Virus record (IMG/VR): IMGVR_UViG_3300031813_000003
Span: 96,001 to 160,000 of that record
Direction: 5' to 3' (one strand)
DNA from: a virus
Taxonomy: Duplodnaviria > Caudoviricetes
DNA length: 64,000 nt
The notes under the pieces were generated by a model. The model was not told the origin of the DNA. It worked only from the letters and a program-made list of their open reading frames with translations, and searched no databases. Position 1 is the first letter of the stretch. Each line of letters starts with the position of its first letter. The position numbers and the translations under genes are program-made. Below, one piece after another: positions 9,825 through 64,000 of the stretch.

Positions 9825-10729
9825 ATGACTCGTTTAGAGAAAGCACAGAATATCTTCAACGCAGGTTTCAGCACCAAAGCTGACCAGAAATACTGCCTTG
9901 ATATGATCAACCGCTCCTATGATGATCTCCGCAAAAACATCACTACCACCATCCTTGATTTGAGGAACGAAGGTAAAATGAAAGAAGATGTTGCCAATGA
10001 ACTGTACTACTCTGTGCCTTACGGTCTTCATCAGTTTCGCACCAAACATGCCGATTCTCTCAAAGTTCTATTCTCTGCGGAAGTGGCTGAAATCAACGAA
10101 CTGATTGCTTTCAGGAACAAAGCAAAAGAAGCTACCATCACTCCTAAAATCTCCAAGACCGCAGTAGCCAAAGCAGCAGTAGCCGAAATCTCCAAATCCT
10201 CCAATAACAAAATCGAATTAGCAGTAATGCCCTTGAAAGAAGCAGCAATCGAAAGAGCAGAACAAGAAGCTATTAATATGGTTAACATCATGACTACCAA
10301 GCTTACAGCTGCAAATTTTGATCTTGGTGTAGTTGCCCCTGCCCCTAAAGCAACATTAGTGTTAACGAATACCATATCGCAATAGGCAAGCGCAGAATGT
10401 ACCTTCAAATCGTGAAACATGTTTCCGGTTGCCGTAGAAATAATGATCCTGAAATTATTAGAATTTCTGATGACTTAGTTGCAAGGTTTATCAAAATCGC
10501 CAAAGAAGACGCAGCAATCCAGTATGATGAATTCGTTGCAAAACTAGTTATCAAGATTGGTAAGGTAACTGACGCAACTCTGTTTGGGAATCATGTGTGG
10601 AGTTTTTCGATTCTCACCGTGACCAAAGAAGACGGTTCCATAGAGAAGTGGAAAACTCAGATGATCGTGAACATTTCCAAACTTGGGAAACTCTTCAACC
10701 AATGGCCCACGAGGAAGATGAAAAAATAA
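9825..10729 (+). CDS. Hypothetical protein, apparently one gene broken by a frameshift near 10347
   Basis: The -1 frame opens at 10349 and runs (SNISVNEYHIAIGKRR) into ORF 10397-10729; one extra A in CCTAAAG would join them. Confidence 0.55.
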
Positions 10730-47944: not shown

Positions 47945-48000
47945 TTTATTCTCCCATATAAATAGTTATGTATCAATAAAAACTTATATGGGAGAATAAA
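47945..48000 (+). promoter_or_regulatory. Late promoter TATAAATA inside an SD-sequestering hairpin
   Basis: TTTATTCTCCCATATAA/TTATATGGGAGAATAAA; TATAAATA at 47957. Confidence 0.8.
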
Positions 48001-56732: not shown

Positions 56733-58271
56733 ATGAATGTAGTATTTAATGCAGTAGGCAAAGATATTGTAAAAGCGTTTCCAGCTGGGTTTACTTATAA
56801 AACAGAAGATGGTTCTGTTTTATTCAGTCCTTGGGTATCCTACCCTAATCAACGAATTTGGAATGAGAATAACCTGTTACTCAAAGTAGATTCTTATAAG
56901 CCAAGTCATGCACCCTGTTATCCTCCTGATGCAGATGCAATGGAATCTTACATCGAAGCAAGAGCAGGAGATCACCTTCTGTTTTTCGGTCTTCAGATGT
57001 ACATCCAGAAGTATCTGATGACTCCTATCTCCCAAGCAGATATCGATGAAGCTGTAGATTTCTTTGCACTTCATGGTGAGCCTTTCGATAAAGAAATGTG
57101 GCAACACATTTTTGACACTTACAACGGGTTTATTCCTGTTGTGATTTCTGCAATCCCTGAAGGAACTGTAGTCCCTAACCGAAATATCATTGCAAAGATT
57201 TCTTGCACTGATAAGAAATGCTTCAGTGTAGCTTCTTATCTTGAAACTTCGTTCCTCAGAGGGGTATGGTATCCATCGTCTACAGGAACTATTAGTTATG
57301 ACTGCCGTGTAGAAATCAAAAAATACATGGAACTGACTGCTGACTCTCTTGAAGGACTTAACTTCAAACTACACAGCTTTGCTGGTAGGGGTGTTAGTTC
57401 CAGTGAATCTGCAGCACTTGGTGATGCTGGTCATATGGCAACTGGTGCAATGGGGTCTGACACTGTAGAAGGGGTCATACGGGCAAATAATGCCTATGGG
57501 TGTACCGGTGGTATGTCTGCATTCTCTATCCCTGCTACAGAGCATTCTACGATTACCAGTTGGGGGAAAGAAAACGAGGCAGCTGCATATAAAAACTTCC
57601 TCGACAAATATCTTCTGCCTGGAAAAATCTGTGCATGTGTCTCTGACTCCTATGACATCATGGAAGCATGTGACATTTGGGGAACAATTCATAAAGATCA
57701 GATTGTGAATTCTGGTGGAACATTAGTTGTTCGTCCTGATTCTGGTGAACCAGCACCTACGGTTCTTGCTGTAGTTGAACGTCTGGAAAAGTATTTTGGA
57801 ACTACTGTAAACTCCAAAGGTTATAAAGTTCTCCCTGATTGTATCAGGGTTATCCAAGGTGATGGAATTAACAGGAATGCTATTGTGGAAATCCTCCAGC
57901 TGCTTATGTGGAAAGGATATTCTGCTGACAACGTTGCCTTTGGTATGGGTGGAGCATTACTTCAACATGTAAACCGTGATACCTTTGGTTTCGTTATGAA
58001 GTGTTGCGCAATCAGGATTGGTGGAGTTTGGGTTGATGTGTTCAAGGAAGCTCCAGGCAAGAACAGTAAGAAAGGTAGACTTGAACTGATTCAGTACCCT
58101 GATAGAACCTATGAAACTATCAGGGTTGAAGATATCCGTTGGGTTGATAACAAGATGGAAGGTAAGAAAGTACTTGAAATCGCTTACCAATTGGTAAAAC
58201 AGGGAAACTTCTATTACCCTGTTTACCGTCACCAAGATTTGGATGATGTTCGTGAACGTGCAAATCGTTAA
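56733..58271 (+). CDS. nadV: Nicotinamide phosphoribosyltransferase
   Basis: DSYK.SH, FFGLQ, PEGT, LET, LH.F..RG, SIPATEHS, VSDSYD, VVRPDSG, VIQGDG, FGMGG.LL; start chosen from the AAGGGAG SD. Confidence 0.93.
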   Translation: MNVVFNAVGKDIVKAFPAGFTYKTEDGSVLFSPWVSYPNQRIWNENNLLLKVDSYKPSHAPCYPPDADAMESYIEARAGDHLLFFGLQMYIQKYLMTPISQADIDEAVDFFALHGEPFDKEMWQHIFDTYNGFIPVVISAIPEGTVVPNRNIIAKISCTDKKCFSVASYLETSFLRGVWYPSSTGTISYDCRVEIKKYMELTADSLEGLNFKLHSFAGRGVSSSESAALGDAGHMATGAMGSDTVEGVIRANNAYGCTGGMSAFSIPATEHSTITSWGKENEAAAYKNFLDKYLLPGKICACVSDSYDIMEACDIWGTIHKDQIVNSGGTLVVRPDSGEPAPTVLAVVERLEKYFGTTVNSKGYKVLPDCIRVIQGDGINRNAIVEILQLLMWKGYSADNVAFGMGGALLQHVNRDTFGFVMKCCAIRIGGVWVDVFKEAPGKNSKKGRLELIQYPDRTYETIRVEDIRWVDNKMEGKKVLEIAYQLVKQGNFYYPVYRHQDLDDVRERANR

Positions 58272-58287
58272 GAAGTGAAAGTTTAAA

Positions 58288-58346
58288 TTGACAAATAAAT
58301 CTCCTTTGTGTTAAGATGTTTATACATTCAATCACAAAGGAGATTT
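58288..58346 (+). promoter_or_regulatory. sigma70-type promoter with an anti-SD inverted repeat
   Basis: TTGACA-18-TAAGAT; AAATCTCCTTTGTG/CACAAAGGAGATTT. Confidence 0.75.
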
Positions 58347-58349
58347 TTC

Positions 58350-58625
58350 ATGTCTATTTCAACTGTTGTCGATCTTAAAGATTGCCCTTTCTGCGGTCGT
58401 AGAGAAAAATCCTTTTATTTTGGACCTACTTCAGCAATGACATAGGGGATTGAATGCCCCTGTGGATGTAAGATGGAAGAAAAGATGTTTAACTCTTATT
58501 CAAAAAAAGATAAAGAAATAATGAAACAGATAGAAGATAAAAATTGTAATGACATGGGTTGCGTGTTAGCTTTAGATGTTTTTCATATGTTGAACGTAGC
58601 AGCAAAATGGAATACTAGAAAATGA
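58350..58625 (+). pseudogene. Lar (restriction alleviation)-like Zn-ribbon gene with an in-frame TAG at 58443
   Basis: LKDCPFCG...T*GIECPCGC...AAKWNTR in one frame. Confidence 0.55.
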
Positions 58626-58638
58626 CAGAGGAGACAAA

Positions 58639-58866
58639 ATGAAACTTAAATACGTGATAGTCAATTGTATGCCAATCATCTTTCCGTTAGGATTTCAGCA
58701 TAACGTGTTTGAACAAATTGGTGAGATTGAAGGTGCTGGTTTCGTTAATATTGTGAATGATCATGGAGAACTGAAAGGGAAAGTTCATGGTAAATCAACA
58801 TCAACGGGATTTGACGCTTGTCAAGACGATGAAATAATGATAAATATCATGTTGAAAGACCGTTAG
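58639..58866 (+). CDS. Conserved small phage protein
   Basis: KY.I....PIIFP...QH...GAGF...G.STS. Confidence 0.6.
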   Translation: MKLKYVIVNCMPIIFPLGFQHNVFEQIGEIEGAGFVNIVNDHGELKGKVHGKSTSTGFDACQDDEIMINIMLKDR

Positions 58867-59196
58867 GGAGGAGATTTATAAATGCAAGGAATTTTGTTTT
58901 ATATTATTGTGATGTAACCAACAAAGGAATAATAATGAAAATACATGTTGTTGAATTTAATGATGGAACATACGGTGTAAGAAAGATTATTGGTTGGTGG
59001 ATTTTCAAATCTGAACCGGTGTATCTAGATTTAAAAAGTAATTCGGTATATTTTTGGGGTAAACTATCAGATTATTTTGATCACTGTAAAACACCAAATA
59101 AGGAATTAGCAATATCAATGTATCAAAGATATATTGAAGATGAAAAAATAATTTATCCGTAAAGGTTAATATCAAAGGAGTCGATAAGATTAAAGA

Positions 59197-60282
59197 ATGA
59201 ATGTAAATGTAAACGAAGTAGAAGCAAATGAAGTGACTGATAGAGATTTACTAGCTGTAGTCTATAAAGTAGAAAGGCTAGAAGCAATCCCTAACAAAGA
59301 TCGGATCGAACTTGTTCACCTGAAGGACTGTGGATATACTTGTATCTGTGAAAAAGGTCACACCGTAGGAGATTTGGTTGTATTCATCAAGTATGATACA
59401 ATTCTCCCTAAAATCGAAATGTTTAACTGGATGGCAGAATCTAAATACCGTGTTAAACCAAAATCCTTTACAGAGAGGGATGAAGAAGATAACGTAGTAA
59501 AGAAGATTTACAGTCAAGGTATTGTTATCCCCTTTCGTGTAGTTTCTGAATATATTGAATGTGATGATATCAATATTCGTTTTGAAGGTGCTGACCTAAC
59601 TTCATATCTAGGAATCGTCAAATACATTGCGCCTGTATCAAATGGTGGAATGGGTAATATGCAGTCAAAGGGTGATTTCCCTACCCACAAAGTATCAAAG
59701 ACAGATGAAATGAATGTCTGCTCTAAGATGAAAGCATACGCTGAAATTCAAGGGCAAGAAGTTTACATCACTCAGAAGATCGAAGGTTCATCTGTTACTT
59801 TCTTCTGTGAAGATGATGAACTAGTTGTTTGTAGCAGAAACAACATCCTTATTGAAACTGAGGGTAACAAGTTTTGGCAAGGAGTTAAGAAGTACGATAC
59901 TAAAACTTTGTTCACTGATCTTCCTTGGTTGATTTGTCAGGCTGAACTTTATGGCCCAGGAATTCAGAAAAACAAACTAGGAACTGAATCTGTTGATATT
60001 ATGATCTTCAACATGATTGATGGAAGAACTAGGCAGAAGCTTGGTTACTACCGGATGATTGATATCGCAGTTAAATATAAGCTTCCTCTTGTTCCACTAA
60101 TTTGTTGTATCCAAAGTTTTGATTGGACTTTTGAACAACTTCAAGAATTTACTGATAAACAGAAGTACCCAAATGGTGAACTAGCTGAAGGTGTTGTTAT
60201 TCGTCCAGTAGAACCATTCATCAGTAAGGTTCTCCATGAAGAATGGTCCCTCAAATGTATTTCAAGAGAATACAAGCTTTGA
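59197..60282 (+). CDS. RNA ligase, Rnl2/DRB0094-like
   Basis: N-terminal IP..DRIE domain; KTDE; TQKIEGSS (motif I Lys); ELYGPGIQKN; EGVV; LKCIS..Y. Confidence 0.9.
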   Translation: MNVNVNEVEANEVTDRDLLAVVYKVERLEAIPNKDRIELVHLKDCGYTCICEKGHTVGDLVVFIKYDTILPKIEMFNWMAESKYRVKPKSFTERDEEDNVVKKIYSQGIVIPFRVVSEYIECDDINIRFEGADLTSYLGIVKYIAPVSNGGMGNMQSKGDFPTHKVSKTDEMNVCSKMKAYAEIQGQEVYITQKIEGSSVTFFCEDDELVVCSRNNILIETEGNKFWQGVKKYDTKTLFTDLPWLICQAELYGPGIQKNKLGTESVDIMIFNMIDGRTRQKLGYYRMIDIAVKYKLPLVPLICCIQSFDWTFEQLQEFTDKQKYPNGELAEGVVIRPVEPFISKVLHEEWSLKCISREYKL

Positions 60283-61076
60283 TAGAATACACTAATGGAC
60301 AATTTGGCACTATTGCTCCTGTTAAAGATATCTTCGATTTCCTTTATGAAAAGAGTGACTTCGAAGGTATCAAGGCAGTGCATATAGGGGAAGTCGAAGA
60401 ACTACAACGAATCAGACAGAATAAAGTATCAACTGAAGCTTTATGTGATCGTCTTGATGAACTTGAAAGAGAATTAGCTACACTTAAACCCAAAGGGATA
60501 GTGAAGAGGAAAGAAGACGAAGAACCTATTGCCACTCGTAGGACATATCCTGTGAGTCCTGAACGTCCTTCTAGCCCTGTTAATACCACATCTGTATCAA
60601 TGGATCGTCCTAACTATCATCACACTCAGAATGGCACTCCTGTTCGTTCCTATGGTAATGCAACAGCACCAGCACCAGCACCTGTTCATAACACAACTAT
60701 CATCAACAACGGTGGAAACAGTGGAAACAACAATGGTGGAGATTTTGTAACTGGAATGATGGCAGGGGCATTGCTCGACAACGCACTTTCCAGTAACCAT
60801 CACCATGATCGTGAAGTTGTGGTTGAGCGTGAGTACGTACCTGTTCGTGAAGTAGAAGTGCGTGAAACTGAAACATCCAGATCGACTTGGGATACACCTA
60901 AAGAAGAATCCAAATCCAGTTCATGGGATGCACCTAAAGAATCATCACATTCCAGTTCATGGGATGATCATTCTAGTAGTAATAGCAGTTCATGGGATAA
61001 TAGTTCTTCATCAGATTCCAGTAGTTCTTGGGGTGATAGCTCATCTTCAGACTCTAGCGGCGGGGGTGACTGGTAA
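60279..61076 (+). CDS. Hypothetical protein with a low-complexity Ser/Trp/Asp repeat tail
   Basis: Probable TTG start; GMMAGALL segment; repeated SSSWD. Confidence 0.6.
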   Translation: MIEYTNGQFGTIAPVKDIFDFLYEKSDFEGIKAVHIGEVEELQRIRQNKVSTEALCDRLDELERELATLKPKGIVKRKEDEEPIATRRTYPVSPERPSSPVNTTSVSMDRPNYHHTQNGTPVRSYGNATAPAPAPVHNTTIINNGGNSGNNNGGDFVTGMMAGALLDNALSSNHHHDREVVVEREYVPVREVEVRETETSRSTWDTPKEESKSSSWDAPKESSHSSSWDDHSSSNSSSWDNSSSSDSSSSWGDSSSSDSSGGGDW

Positions 61077-61171
61077 TGACATTCACAGTACTTTATTTGA
61101 TAGGATCAGGAATTGTGATTGGGTTAATTATAGGGCATTGGTTGTGGAAACCTAAAAAGGAGACTAAATAA

Positions 61172-61513
61172 ATGAACGATGTAACTAAAGTAGTTGTATG
61201 TATTGTTGGGTTTGTTGTGTTCATCATCGGAATCAGTTGGATTTCAATGGGCAATGAATTCATGTTATACAAATATTTTGCGCCTAAGCAGGAAGCAGTA
61301 CGGACCAAGGTTTATCGTGAGTCCCAAGCTCAACAGGATGGTATGATAAACGAACTTCAGAAAATGCAGATTGAATATGCATCTGCTAGTCCTGAAGGTA
61401 AATTAATCATTGCAGATGCTGTAGTTTCACGGTCTGCTCAATTCACTGGACAACTTACTCCTAGTCTTGATGCTTTCGTTTCCAAATGTAAGGCGCAGAA
61501 AGGAATCAACTAA
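61172..61513 (+). CDS. Membrane-anchored hypothetical protein
   Basis: N-terminal TM helix; FAPK.E.VR..V..ESQ....G. Confidence 0.7.
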   Translation: MNDVTKVVVCIVGFVVFIIGISWISMGNEFMLYKYFAPKQEAVRTKVYRESQAQQDGMINELQKMQIEYASASPEGKLIIADAVVSRSAQFTGQLTPSLDAFVSKCKAQKGIN

Positions 61514-61514
61514 A

Positions 61515-61676
61515 GTGATCAACAAGAAAGGGTTTGCCCTAATAGAACTTATCATTGTGGTTGCTATCGTAGGAATTCTTATTGCCATTGCTGTACCACA
61601 ATACATAAATTACCATAATCATGGATATATTCAGAATGATATCAACACTCAAAGGAATCCTGATTACCGACCATAA
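61515..61676 (+). CDS. Mini type IVa pilin (6-aa leader, 47-aa mature), Geobacter PilA-N-like
   Basis: GTG start after AAGGA; MINKKG/FALIELIIVVAIVGILIAIAVPQY (class III signal, E5, G14, P22). Confidence 0.85.
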   Translation: MINKKGFALIELIIVVAIVGILIAIAVPQYINYHNHGYIQNDINTQRNPDYRP

Positions 61677-61869
61677 GGGATTTGGTGTAGTAGAACTTAT
61701 AATTGGGATTGTTATAGTAGGACTAATACTAGCTATTATTCCTGCTGTAACATACCTTCACATAGTGAATTATATCACACCTAAAGCTTTAGAATCAAAT
61801 CAACATCGTTATGGATATATTCATAGGGATTTTGACTCACATCGTAACCCTTACTATAAAGAATATTAA
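61621..61869 (+). CDS. Second pilin-like protein (62-aa mature; start uncertain)
   Basis: HKG/FGVVELIIGIVIVGLILAIIP; C-terminal motif shared with the upstream pilin. Confidence 0.7.
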   Translation: MDIFRMISTLKGILITDHKGFGVVELIIGIVIVGLILAIIPAVTYLHIVNYITPKALESNQHRYGYIHRDFDSHRNPYYKEY

Positions 61870-61882
61870 AGGAAATAAAAAA

Positions 61883-62419
61883 ATGAAAAATGTTGTTATG
61901 TTTATGTGTCTGCTTGTTAGTTGTTCACTGTTTGTAGGGTGTAAAGAAAAACCTATCCATCAAACTGCGGATCAGCAAATTAACCGTCAACAGGAAGGAA
62001 TGGCTCAACAGGCAAACAAAGAAGCTGGTATGCCTGGGATTTCTAACTTCACCGAAAAGAAAACCATGCGTAAAATCCTTGAAAAACGTGATTCTGCGAA
62101 CCTTGTAACTTATGGCTACATCTGGTCACCTATGCTTGCTAAATTTCGGTTTGTCGGTATTGGTTATGGGTATCCACTTCCTTATGCAACTCAGTACACC
62201 AATCCTACGAGGATTGCTAGGCATGACGAAGTTCCATATGTTGGTAATGTAACTCTTCCCCAAGCTGACCCTACAGGTCTTTGGAGCCCTGCATCAGCTG
62301 ATGCAACTTGGTGGTTGATGATGGATGAAGAAACCAAAAGTGTTGACGCTGAATATTTTGAAGAAAGAATCAATGTTGTTCTTCATAAACTCCCTAAGCG
62401 TATGGTTATCCAAGATTAA
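61883..62419 (+). CDS. Conserved phage lipoprotein
   Basis: Lipobox LFVGC; GMP.I.NF.EK, PYATQYTNP, PQADP.GL. Confidence 0.75.
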   Translation: MKNVVMFMCLLVSCSLFVGCKEKPIHQTADQQINRQQEGMAQQANKEAGMPGISNFTEKKTMRKILEKRDSANLVTYGYIWSPMLAKFRFVGIGYGYPLPYATQYTNPTRIARHDEVPYVGNVTLPQADPTGLWSPASADATWWLMMDEETKSVDAEYFEERINVVLHKLPKRMVIQD

Positions 62420-62428
62420 TACAAACTG

Positions 62429-62490
62429 AATCCTTTTTGGAGCAATAAATAAAGTTGAAGTTGACTAAAATTTATTGCTTCAAAAGGATT
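62429..62490 (+). promoter_or_regulatory. Late-promoter-like AATAAATA inside an SD-sequestering hairpin upstream of phoH
   Basis: AATCCTTTTTGGAGCAATAAAT/ATTTATTGCTTCAAAAGGATT. Confidence 0.6.
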
Positions 62491-62492
62491 TT

Positions 62493-63980
62493 ATGCCAAA
62501 GATTTATGTACTTGACACAAATGTTCTGCTCTTAGATGGAAACGCAATCAACAAATTCGAAGAAAACATCGTAGTTATCCCTCAACCTGTTCTAAATGAA
62601 ATTGACAAACACAAAAAAGACCCTGATGGTGAGATTAGATACAATTCTAGACAGTTCTCTAGGAACGTAGATGAATTAAGGAAACAAGGAAGTCTATCAA
62701 ATGGTGTTCAGCTAAATGATCAAGGTGGAATGCTGTATGTAACTCTATTTGATGATAATGTAGCTTCATTATTACCCTTCCAAGATATGTCCTATATGGA
62801 CAACCGTATCCTTGCTTGCGCTTTATATGTTCAAAAAAATAACTTTTGTGAATTAGGTGAAGAAGTATATGAGGTTGTCATTGTTTCTAATGATACCAAC
62901 ATGCGTATTCTTGCTGATATTTTTGGTCTTCAAGCTGAAGACTATAAAAATTCTAAAGTACAAAGTGATGAACTATACACAGGGATTCAACATATCTATG
63001 TTGACCAACAGTGTATTGACTTGATGTATACCCTAGGAAAATTCGATCTAGCTGATGCTCAACCATTCTTAGATGATTCACATTTGGGGGTTTCATTTAA
63101 TATTACTGATGAATATATATCATATGTACCTTCCCCAAATGAATGTTTTGTATTTCATTCTCTATCAAATACAAAACAAAGTGCGTTGACTAGGTACAAC
63201 TCTGTAATGAAAGAGTTTAGAGTACTTCCACAAGATATGAAAACTTGTGATGCTCTTCCACGTAGTGCTGAACAAGCATTCGCATTGGATATTCTTAAAG
63301 ACCCTGAAGTATGCTTAGTATCTCTTAACGCCAAGGCAGGGTGTGGTAAAACTTTCTTAGCCCTAGCTGCTGCAATACATGGTGTGATGGAAACCCATAC
63401 ATACAACAAAATCCTACTTTTAAAGCCTATTGTGCCAATGGATAATAGTCATGAGCTAGGATTCCTCCCAGGAGGTCTAGACGAGAAGCTTGGACCTTGG
63501 ATGGCATCTTATGCAGACAACATCGAACAGATAATGTCCAAGTATATCAAAGAAGATGGATATGACAAAGGGAAGAAACCAAAGAACAAGAAAGAAGAAA
63601 AGCAACAAGATGATTACTTTGAGAAACAACAAGGTAAAACTAGCCCTATTCAGGAAATGATTGCTTTAGGATTGCTTGAATTTGGATCACTAGAGCATGC
63701 TAGAGGGCGAAACTGGAGCAACACATACGTCATCATAGATGAAGGACAAAATACCAGTAAAAGCACAATGAAGACCATTCTGACACGTATTGGGGAAGGA
63801 TCAAAGATTGTAGTTATGGGTGACCCTAGCCAGATAGATTCTCCATACCTTGACAGTAAGAGTAATGGACTTGTGATAGTTCAAGACCTTTTTAGATCAT
63901 CTGACCTAGCAGGGCATATCACCCTAACAAAATCTGAAAGAAGTAAACTTGCAGAACTAGCAGCTGAACTACTAAACTAA
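62493..63980 (+). CDS. phoH: PIN-PhoH (PhoH2-type) protein
   Basis: YVLDTNVLL (PIN), DNRIL, AGCGKT, GFLPG...EK..PW, RGR, IDEGQN, TRIG, GDPSQID, ERS. Confidence 0.93.
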   Translation: MPKIYVLDTNVLLLDGNAINKFEENIVVIPQPVLNEIDKHKKDPDGEIRYNSRQFSRNVDELRKQGSLSNGVQLNDQGGMLYVTLFDDNVASLLPFQDMSYMDNRILACALYVQKNNFCELGEEVYEVVIVSNDTNMRILADIFGLQAEDYKNSKVQSDELYTGIQHIYVDQQCIDLMYTLGKFDLADAQPFLDDSHLGVSFNITDEYISYVPSPNECFVFHSLSNTKQSALTRYNSVMKEFRVLPQDMKTCDALPRSAEQAFALDILKDPEVCLVSLNAKAGCGKTFLALAAAIHGVMETHTYNKILLLKPIVPMDNSHELGFLPGGLDEKLGPWMASYADNIEQIMSKYIKEDGYDKGKKPKNKKEEKQQDDYFEKQQGKTSPIQEMIALGLLEFGSLEHARGRNWSNTYVIIDEGQNTSKSTMKTILTRIGEGSKIVVMGDPSQIDSPYLDSKSNGLVIVQDLFRSSDLAGHITLTKSERSKLAELAAELLN

Positions 63981-64000
63981 GGACTTTATGTTACCATCAA

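Follow-up and report, generated by a model that had tools for sequence, protein, structure and literature searches.

Phages are already known to encode proteins that resemble type IV pilins. Truncated PilA-like proteins (P-PilA), which correspond to the N-terminal ~60 residues, occur in six virulent Pseudomonas phages, and entry into or blocking of the type IV pilus, with superinfection exclusion as the outcome, has been proposed for them as a hypothesis (PMC12952977). P-FimU, carried by a prophage of the Pseudomonas F10-like phages, is a full-length mimic which has been shown experimentally to replace FimU and to block the adsorption of pilus-dependent phages (PMC12952977). ORFs with an N_methyl domain were tabulated as early as 2006 in T4-like Aeromonas phages: 44RR2.8t ORF097c (NP_932452.1) and Aeh1 ORF040c (Nolan et al. 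2006, PMC1524935). In the 44RR2.8t locus that we retrieved, ORF097c (9998-10216, - strand) is a 72-aa mini-prepilin annotated as "hypothetical protein". Headless phage pilins thus recur, in the hypothesis put forward in the literature, in the PHROG families described below and, since 2006, in T4-like Aeromonas phages, in what are still putative roles.

The two genes characterized here are carried by a phage whose record is 215,974 bp long and complete by CheckV. Bases 96001-160000 of this record, a stretch of 64,000 nucleotides, are referred to below as the window, and positions are those of the window. PHROG matches, which include a gp43-type DNA polymerase, both topoisomerase II subunits, a baseplate wedge protein and NrdA, place the phage among the T4-like myoviruses. 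The genome has a G+C content of ~34% and carries all its genes on the + strand. Its DNA polymerase shares at most ~35% identity with that of any cultured phage, the top matches being Methylophilales phage Melnitz and cyanomyoviruses; there is no psbA in the genome and the phage is therefore not evidently a cyanophage. The genes of interest form part of a tightly packed co-directional array (59197 to 63980) and genes for an RNA ligase, NAMPT and PIN-PhoH are found nearby. No T4 late-promoter motif is present past position 47964 of the window and no terminator is predicted within 58000-64000, from which we infer that the pair is probably expressed in the early or middle period of infection.

The first gene, mini-prepilin 1 (pilin 1; 61515-61676, + strand), encodes 53 aa. 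It begins with a GTG at 61515, 2 nt past the stop of the upstream gene and with an AAAGGA 10 nt before it, and ends with a stop codon at 61674-61676. A basic leader of 6 residues is followed by the cleavage site, with Gly-1 at 61530-61532 and Phe+1 at 61533, and Glu+5 is present. The predicted mature part of 47 aa consists of a hydrophobic stretch of 21 residues leading to Pro22 and a further 25 residues. Pilin 1 exceeds the cut-offs of both Pfam PF07963 N_methyl (30.5 bits; cut-off 21.2) and TIGR02532 (31.8 bits; cut-off 16.3). It has no gene call in the public protein collection. An AF2 model shows one long helix and a tail of low confidence (pLDDT 54-62) which is uninformative.

The second gene, mini-prepilin 2 (pilin 2), occupies the +1 frame relative to the first, and its longest ORF (61621-61869, + strand) encodes 82 aa. 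There are three candidate starts: an ATG at 61621 (82 aa), an ATG at 61636 (77 aa) and an ATT at 61663 (68 aa). Both ATG codons are without a Shine-Dalgarno sequence, and an AAAGGA lies 6 nt upstream of the ATT. The public gene calls P0001 (77 aa, start 61636) and P0151 (82 aa, start 61621) are the same protein, pilin 2. The cleavage region is Lys-Gly-Phe...Glu5 as in pilin 1, with Gly-1 at 61678-61680, Phe+1 at 61681 and Glu+5 present, and the ORF closes with a stop at 61867-61869; the predicted mature product, 62 aa from 61681, is identical for all three starts. Pilin 2 passes TIGR02532 (17.0-17.2 bits; cut-off 16.3) and is borderline for Pfam N_methyl, with 20.5 for the protein and 21.7 in a genome scan against a cut-off of 21.2.

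Gly-1, Phe+1 and Glu+5 followed by a hydrophobic helix of ~20 residues are common to pilin 1, pilin 2 and an outside relative, P0002, described below. Neither mini-pilin has a globular head domain of the kind seen in full type IV pilins (PF00114): only 26-41 residues follow the helix. Their best matches are the N-termini of type IVa major pilins, and neither attains the equivalog-level scores of full pilins or pseudopilins: GspG (TIGR01710), 32 against 88.85; PilA_Myxo, 38.7 against 400; PpdD, 37.7 against 138. Six PHROG families match pilin 1 over residues 1-37 (phrog_27437, 11263, 3433 "pilin", 11596, 13280 and 10597). These are phage proteins with a prepilin N-terminus, and their matches to pilin 1 stop at the N-terminal helix without reaching the tail. 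As far as sequence can show, both ORFs are phage-encoded, headless prepilin-type proteins, which would need a host peptidase.

Pilin 1 and pilin 2 share ~45% identity overall and are diverged paralogues. Both end in a tail carrying the motif H-x2-GYI-x2-D-x4-RNP-x-Y, delimited by alignments and shuffle tests: the last 20 residues in pilin 1 (61614-61673, + strand) and the corresponding part of pilin 2 (61804-61866, + strand). The two tails align without gaps with 9/20 identities (shuffle p = 1.5e-4). Relative to pilin 1, pilin 2 is longer by an insertion of ~12 codons, located after the Pro and before the tail. At the DNA level, the tail-coding parts of both genes include an identical 13-nt run, ATGGATATATTCA, at 61621-61633 and 61811-61823. 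The runs are 190 nt apart, a distance not divisible by three and consistent with a tandem duplication in which the second copy came to lie in the +1 frame; the repeat may simply reflect shared Gly-Tyr-Ile codons or may mark a duplication junction. Neither the tail motif nor the prepilin motif was found elsewhere in the 216-kb genome in any gene-length ORF. These data bear out the initial annotation in its description of two tandem prepilin-like genes with G/F...E5 sites and without a head (ORFs, N_methyl and TIGR02532 scores), in the exact mature length of 47 aa that it gave for pilin 1, and in a tail motif shared by the two and visible in the DNA.

We also observed that each copy of ATGGATATATTCA contains an ATG from which the following gene can be read in the +1 frame. 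In the first copy this ATG begins the long form of pilin 2, and in the second it would lengthen the lipoprotein frame downstream by 24 codons at the N-terminus.

The relatives of the pair are few. Among 1.84 billion representative proteins, a profile built from the two sequences found, apart from pilin 2 (149 bits), a single true relative, P0002 (75 bits); all others scored at most 55 bits and matched over the N-terminal helix only. P0002 is a protein of 66 aa in which an MKG leader and a canonical helix are followed by a longer linker and by the conserved tail motif; six Logan/ENA contigs of up to 147 kb are on record as carrying it. Its tail shares 11/20 identities with that of pilin 1, a value reached by 0/20,000 shuffles. 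A profile of the three sequences gave an unchanged picture in a collection of 5.8 billion proteins, at near and at longer lengths; the longer proteins were either ordinary pilins or, in high-GC sequences, read-through gene calls containing two pilin N-termini, with no tail-bearing fusion among them. In the representative genomes of GTDB no tail motif was found, and the matches, limited to the N-terminus, are scattered over many phyla and so provide no host signal. A word-indexed search with pilin 1 alone as query returned nothing, as did tblastn searches of 50,697 records of cultured phages with pilin 1 and with P0002, probably as a result of masking of the hydrophobic helix in the latter case. 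Pilin 2 as query found no match in viral contigs, scans of viral and metagenome contigs with the back-translated tail motif produced only chance matches in unrelated ORFs, and a search of the ESM Atlas returned only generic N_methyl clusters. The family is therefore very small, comprising so far this phage and the contigs bearing P0002, and its conserved parts are the class III signal and the tail. Retention of both in two diverged paralogues and in P0002 argues for selection.

The mini-pilins are inserted between two genes of a small cassette. Upstream lies the gene for a single-pass membrane protein of 113 aa (61172-61513, + strand) and downstream that for a lipoprotein of 178 aa (61883-62419, + strand), which matches phrog_24725. 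Using homology to the lipoprotein, we collected 80 related viral loci. In 73 of these a homologue of the 113-aa protein adjoins the lipoprotein gene, mostly directly upstream and often abutting it; in Synechococcus phage S-SRM01, too, the two genes are adjacent. The pilin pair occurs in none of the 80 loci, and of five large phage genomes related to this one, only one has an N_methyl ORF of any kind. The slot between the two cassette genes holds, in several relatives, a membrane peptide of 37 residues or other small ORFs, which identifies the mini-pilins as sporadic accessory genes that occupy a variable position within a cassette directed at the envelope. With the pair missing from the related loci and a single relative outside them, comparative support is thin. 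The lipoprotein family is often tandemly duplicated and is also represented in Clostridium phage phi3626 (Gp45), features that weaken an interpretation of the flanking cassette as a spanin pair. PADLOC produced no match for either pilin or for the lipoprotein, and only a weak one (12.7 bits) for the 113-aa protein.

Several other ORFs of these regions deserve mention. In the window, a protein of 277 aa (60243-61076) has a repetitive C-terminus rich in Ser, Asp and Trp and a weak DUF2076-like match; it is followed directly by a hydrophobic peptide of 31 aa (61076-61171) that abuts the cassette. In one related locus (L040) a homologue of the repetitive 277-aa protein sits in the cassette gap. 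A related phage contig of 116 kb (L020) carries, 2 kb upstream of its cassette, an unrelated pilin-like ORF of ~100 aa (about 956-1270; N_methyl 35.5 bits). Three further viral contigs of 152, 275 and 169 kb encode a bare prepilin helix of 44 aa (L004 and L005, 3980-4114) and a pilin-like ORF of 105 aa (L003, 4001-4318), which are additional sporadic phage mini-pilins.

The reading that accounts best for these observations, to which we assign a probability of roughly one half, is that the mini-pilins are headless prepilins acting on the type IV filament machinery of the host. During infection each would insert into the inner membrane of the cell, where a host prepilin peptidase of the PilD/GspO type would most likely cut after Gly-1 and methylate Phe+1. 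The products would be peptides of 47 and 62 residues, composed of a hydrophobic alpha1-N helix with Glu5 and a short His/Tyr-rich periplasmic tail ending in GYI-x2-D-x4-RNP-x-Y. Such peptides could enter the membrane subunit pool of type IV filament machines, whether type IV pili or the pseudopilus of type II secretion. Being without a head, they might stall or weaken the fibre after entry, or titrate the peptidase or the platform/minor-pilin complex, and the conserved tail would make a specific periplasmic contact. Host pili or secretion would be lost or altered during infection, for example with exclusion of pilus-dependent competitors as the outcome. The phage itself has no prepilin peptidase (peptidase A24) and no credible T2SSE/PilB ATPase in its entire 216-kb genome, the sole T2SSE match scoring 11.6 bits against a cut-off of 24.9. 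For the window, the initial annotation had noted that pilus assembly genes are missing. The idea of a pilin mimic that poisons the pilus or excludes superinfection, with which the locus was first annotated, holds as regards the headless prepilin type and fits the hypothesis in print (PMC12952977); the parts that tied it to Geobacter PilA-N and to electron export do not.

A different function could be built on the same proteins if the class III signal served only as an anchor or for export and the tail bound a target other than the pilus, for example an enzyme of the cell wall or envelope, or the products of the flanking cassette. Of all parts of the three family members, the tail motif shows the most specific conservation, and it has no counterpart in the cellular pilins searched, and the slot belongs to a conserved envelope cassette in which relatives carry other small membrane peptides. 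A tail conserved so strictly would be superfluous if simple poisoning were all that the proteins did, and may indicate a different target; its conservation keeps this alternative in contention. In pilins, Glu5 serves pilin-pilin contacts in the fibre. It would be superfluous for a plain anchor, and its retention together with Gly-1 and Phe+1 in three diverged copies favours a pilin-type role. Moreover, the cassette is without pilins in nearly all relatives. We consider an anchored peptide with a non-pilus target to be unlikely, although it is an alternative to be taken seriously.

It could also be argued that one or both ORFs, pilin 2 being the likelier, are decaying or non-functional leftovers of a pilin fragment that was captured and duplicated. 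Pilin 2 does not combine a canonical start with a Shine-Dalgarno sequence and has a borderline Pfam score, pilin 1 escaped gene calling in the public collection, and the pair is sporadic among relatives. However, both frames have stayed open and have kept the cleavage and tail motifs at an identity of only ~45%, the mature form of pilin 2 is the same from any start, and P0002, presumably from another phage lineage, has the same architecture. Decay is, for these reasons, rather improbable.

Small single-helix membrane proteins encoded between a bitopic membrane protein and a lipoprotein also recall lysis cassettes. The mini-pilins might accordingly be imagined as holin- or antiholin-like factors in lysis timing, as agents of membrane permeabilisation, or as minor virion or injection components, with no effect on pili. 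The occurrence of the lipoprotein family in a Clostridium phage and its tandem duplication nevertheless argue against an outer-membrane spanin, no late promoter motif is found nearby and there is no PHROG lysis or structural match, so that we give little credence to a role in lysis or in the virion.

A more elaborate scheme would make the tail a docking peptide through which the phage turns the type IV filament motor of the host to its own use. Polymerisation of the headless subunits would yield a thin phage-specified pseudopilus or plug, PilA-N-like by analogy and not by homology, that gates the secretin or displays the tail as a ligand. The mini-pilins would then do more than poison the pilus, but we regard this as a long shot.

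The annotation had placed pilin 1 in register with PilA-N of Geobacter sulfurreducens, from which it would follow that the protein is a PilA-N-like short pilin, forming or disturbing a conductive or cytochrome-secreting filament and altering extracellular electron transfer. Some of the positions named are real: P22, F24, Y27 and Y32 are seen in the alignment with 2m7g, and R41 in geopilin-like stand-ins, so that pilin 1 has P22, Y27, Y32 and R41 in common with such proteins; its tail is rich in Tyr and His, and geopilin chains (9egp, 7tgg and 2m7g) are on top in a PDB sequence search with pilin 1. This ranking is owed to leader residues, which match NKKGF in the two best entries only. With mature chains, the scores of geopilin and ordinary pilins are tied (2m7g, 31.8 bits; Acinetobacter 8tob, 31.7; 8tum, 31.4; PAK 1oqw, 31.1; 9laa, 30.6). 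All PDB alignments end at query residue 34-39, that is mature residue ~28-33, those with the geopilins at query residue 38-39 (HMMER). The PAK and Neisseria alignments likewise show P22, an aromatic residue at 24 and Y27, which are features of type IVa pilins in general. Past mature residue 28, pilin 1 shares 1-3/19 identities with four geopilin-like short pilins (p 0.03-0.7), which is at the level of chance. Finally, the mature position of the RNP element differs between the family members (pilin 1, 41; pilin 2, 55; P0002, 57). The register is thus not kept within the family, and the proposed agreement at R41/N42 is an accident of the short linker of pilin 1.

For the downstream lipoprotein, no PilA-C-like fold was detected. 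Foldseek and VIA searches of the PDB with its AF2 model (pLDDT 77) gave nothing significant; the VIA row for 7tgg covers only residues 1-57, the N-terminal helices, with a Z of 2.9, and a member of the PilA-C family might still be missing from such a list of folds. The lipoprotein is, in addition, present without pilins in 73 of the 80 relatives. Taken with a freshwater T4-like phage lineage that has no link to the Desulfuromonadales, these alignments lead us to consider the homology claim largely refuted and a Geobacter-type function as having almost no chance of being correct; the tempting link to Geobacter nanowire biology is removed as unfounded.

Comparison with the described systems places the mini-pilins more precisely. 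Geobacter sulfurreducens PilA-N (PDB 2M7G, 6VK9, 7TGG) is likewise naturally short, with 61 aa in its mature form, and has a canonical type IVa N-terminal helix; the similarity of the phage pilin stops at residue ~33, there is no amphipathic alpha1-C continuation and no PilA-C partner is detectable. P-FimU resembles them as a phage-encoded pilin mimic reliant on host pilus machinery, a dependence that is presumed for the mini-pilins, but it is a minor pilin with a head domain whereas the mini-pilins are headless and major-pilin-like. In 44RR2.8t ORF097c, the setting is again a T4-like myovirus, in this case a cultured one, with an early-gene region, a lipoprotein gene alongside and an MKG leader as in P0002. 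Its tail is, however, unrelated and includes two Cys, it is present in a single copy and its neighbour is an SPFH lipoprotein (ORF098c) rather than a member of phrog_24725. P-PilA proteins, encoded by virulent phages and reduced to the pilin N-terminal helix without a head, are similar by length and description to the proteins of 53 and 68-82 aa described here, which differ in their freshwater T4-like lineage, their tandem arrangement and their tail motif of 20 residues. The pair illustrates the sporadic gain of such genes in a variable slot of an envelope cassette, and the sharply conserved periplasmic tail provides a concrete handle for mutagenesis and for a partner search. Phage-encoded headless pilins are not new in themselves. 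What the locus adds to them is a small family distinguished by its tail, by its tandem duplication and by the defined slot into which it is inserted.
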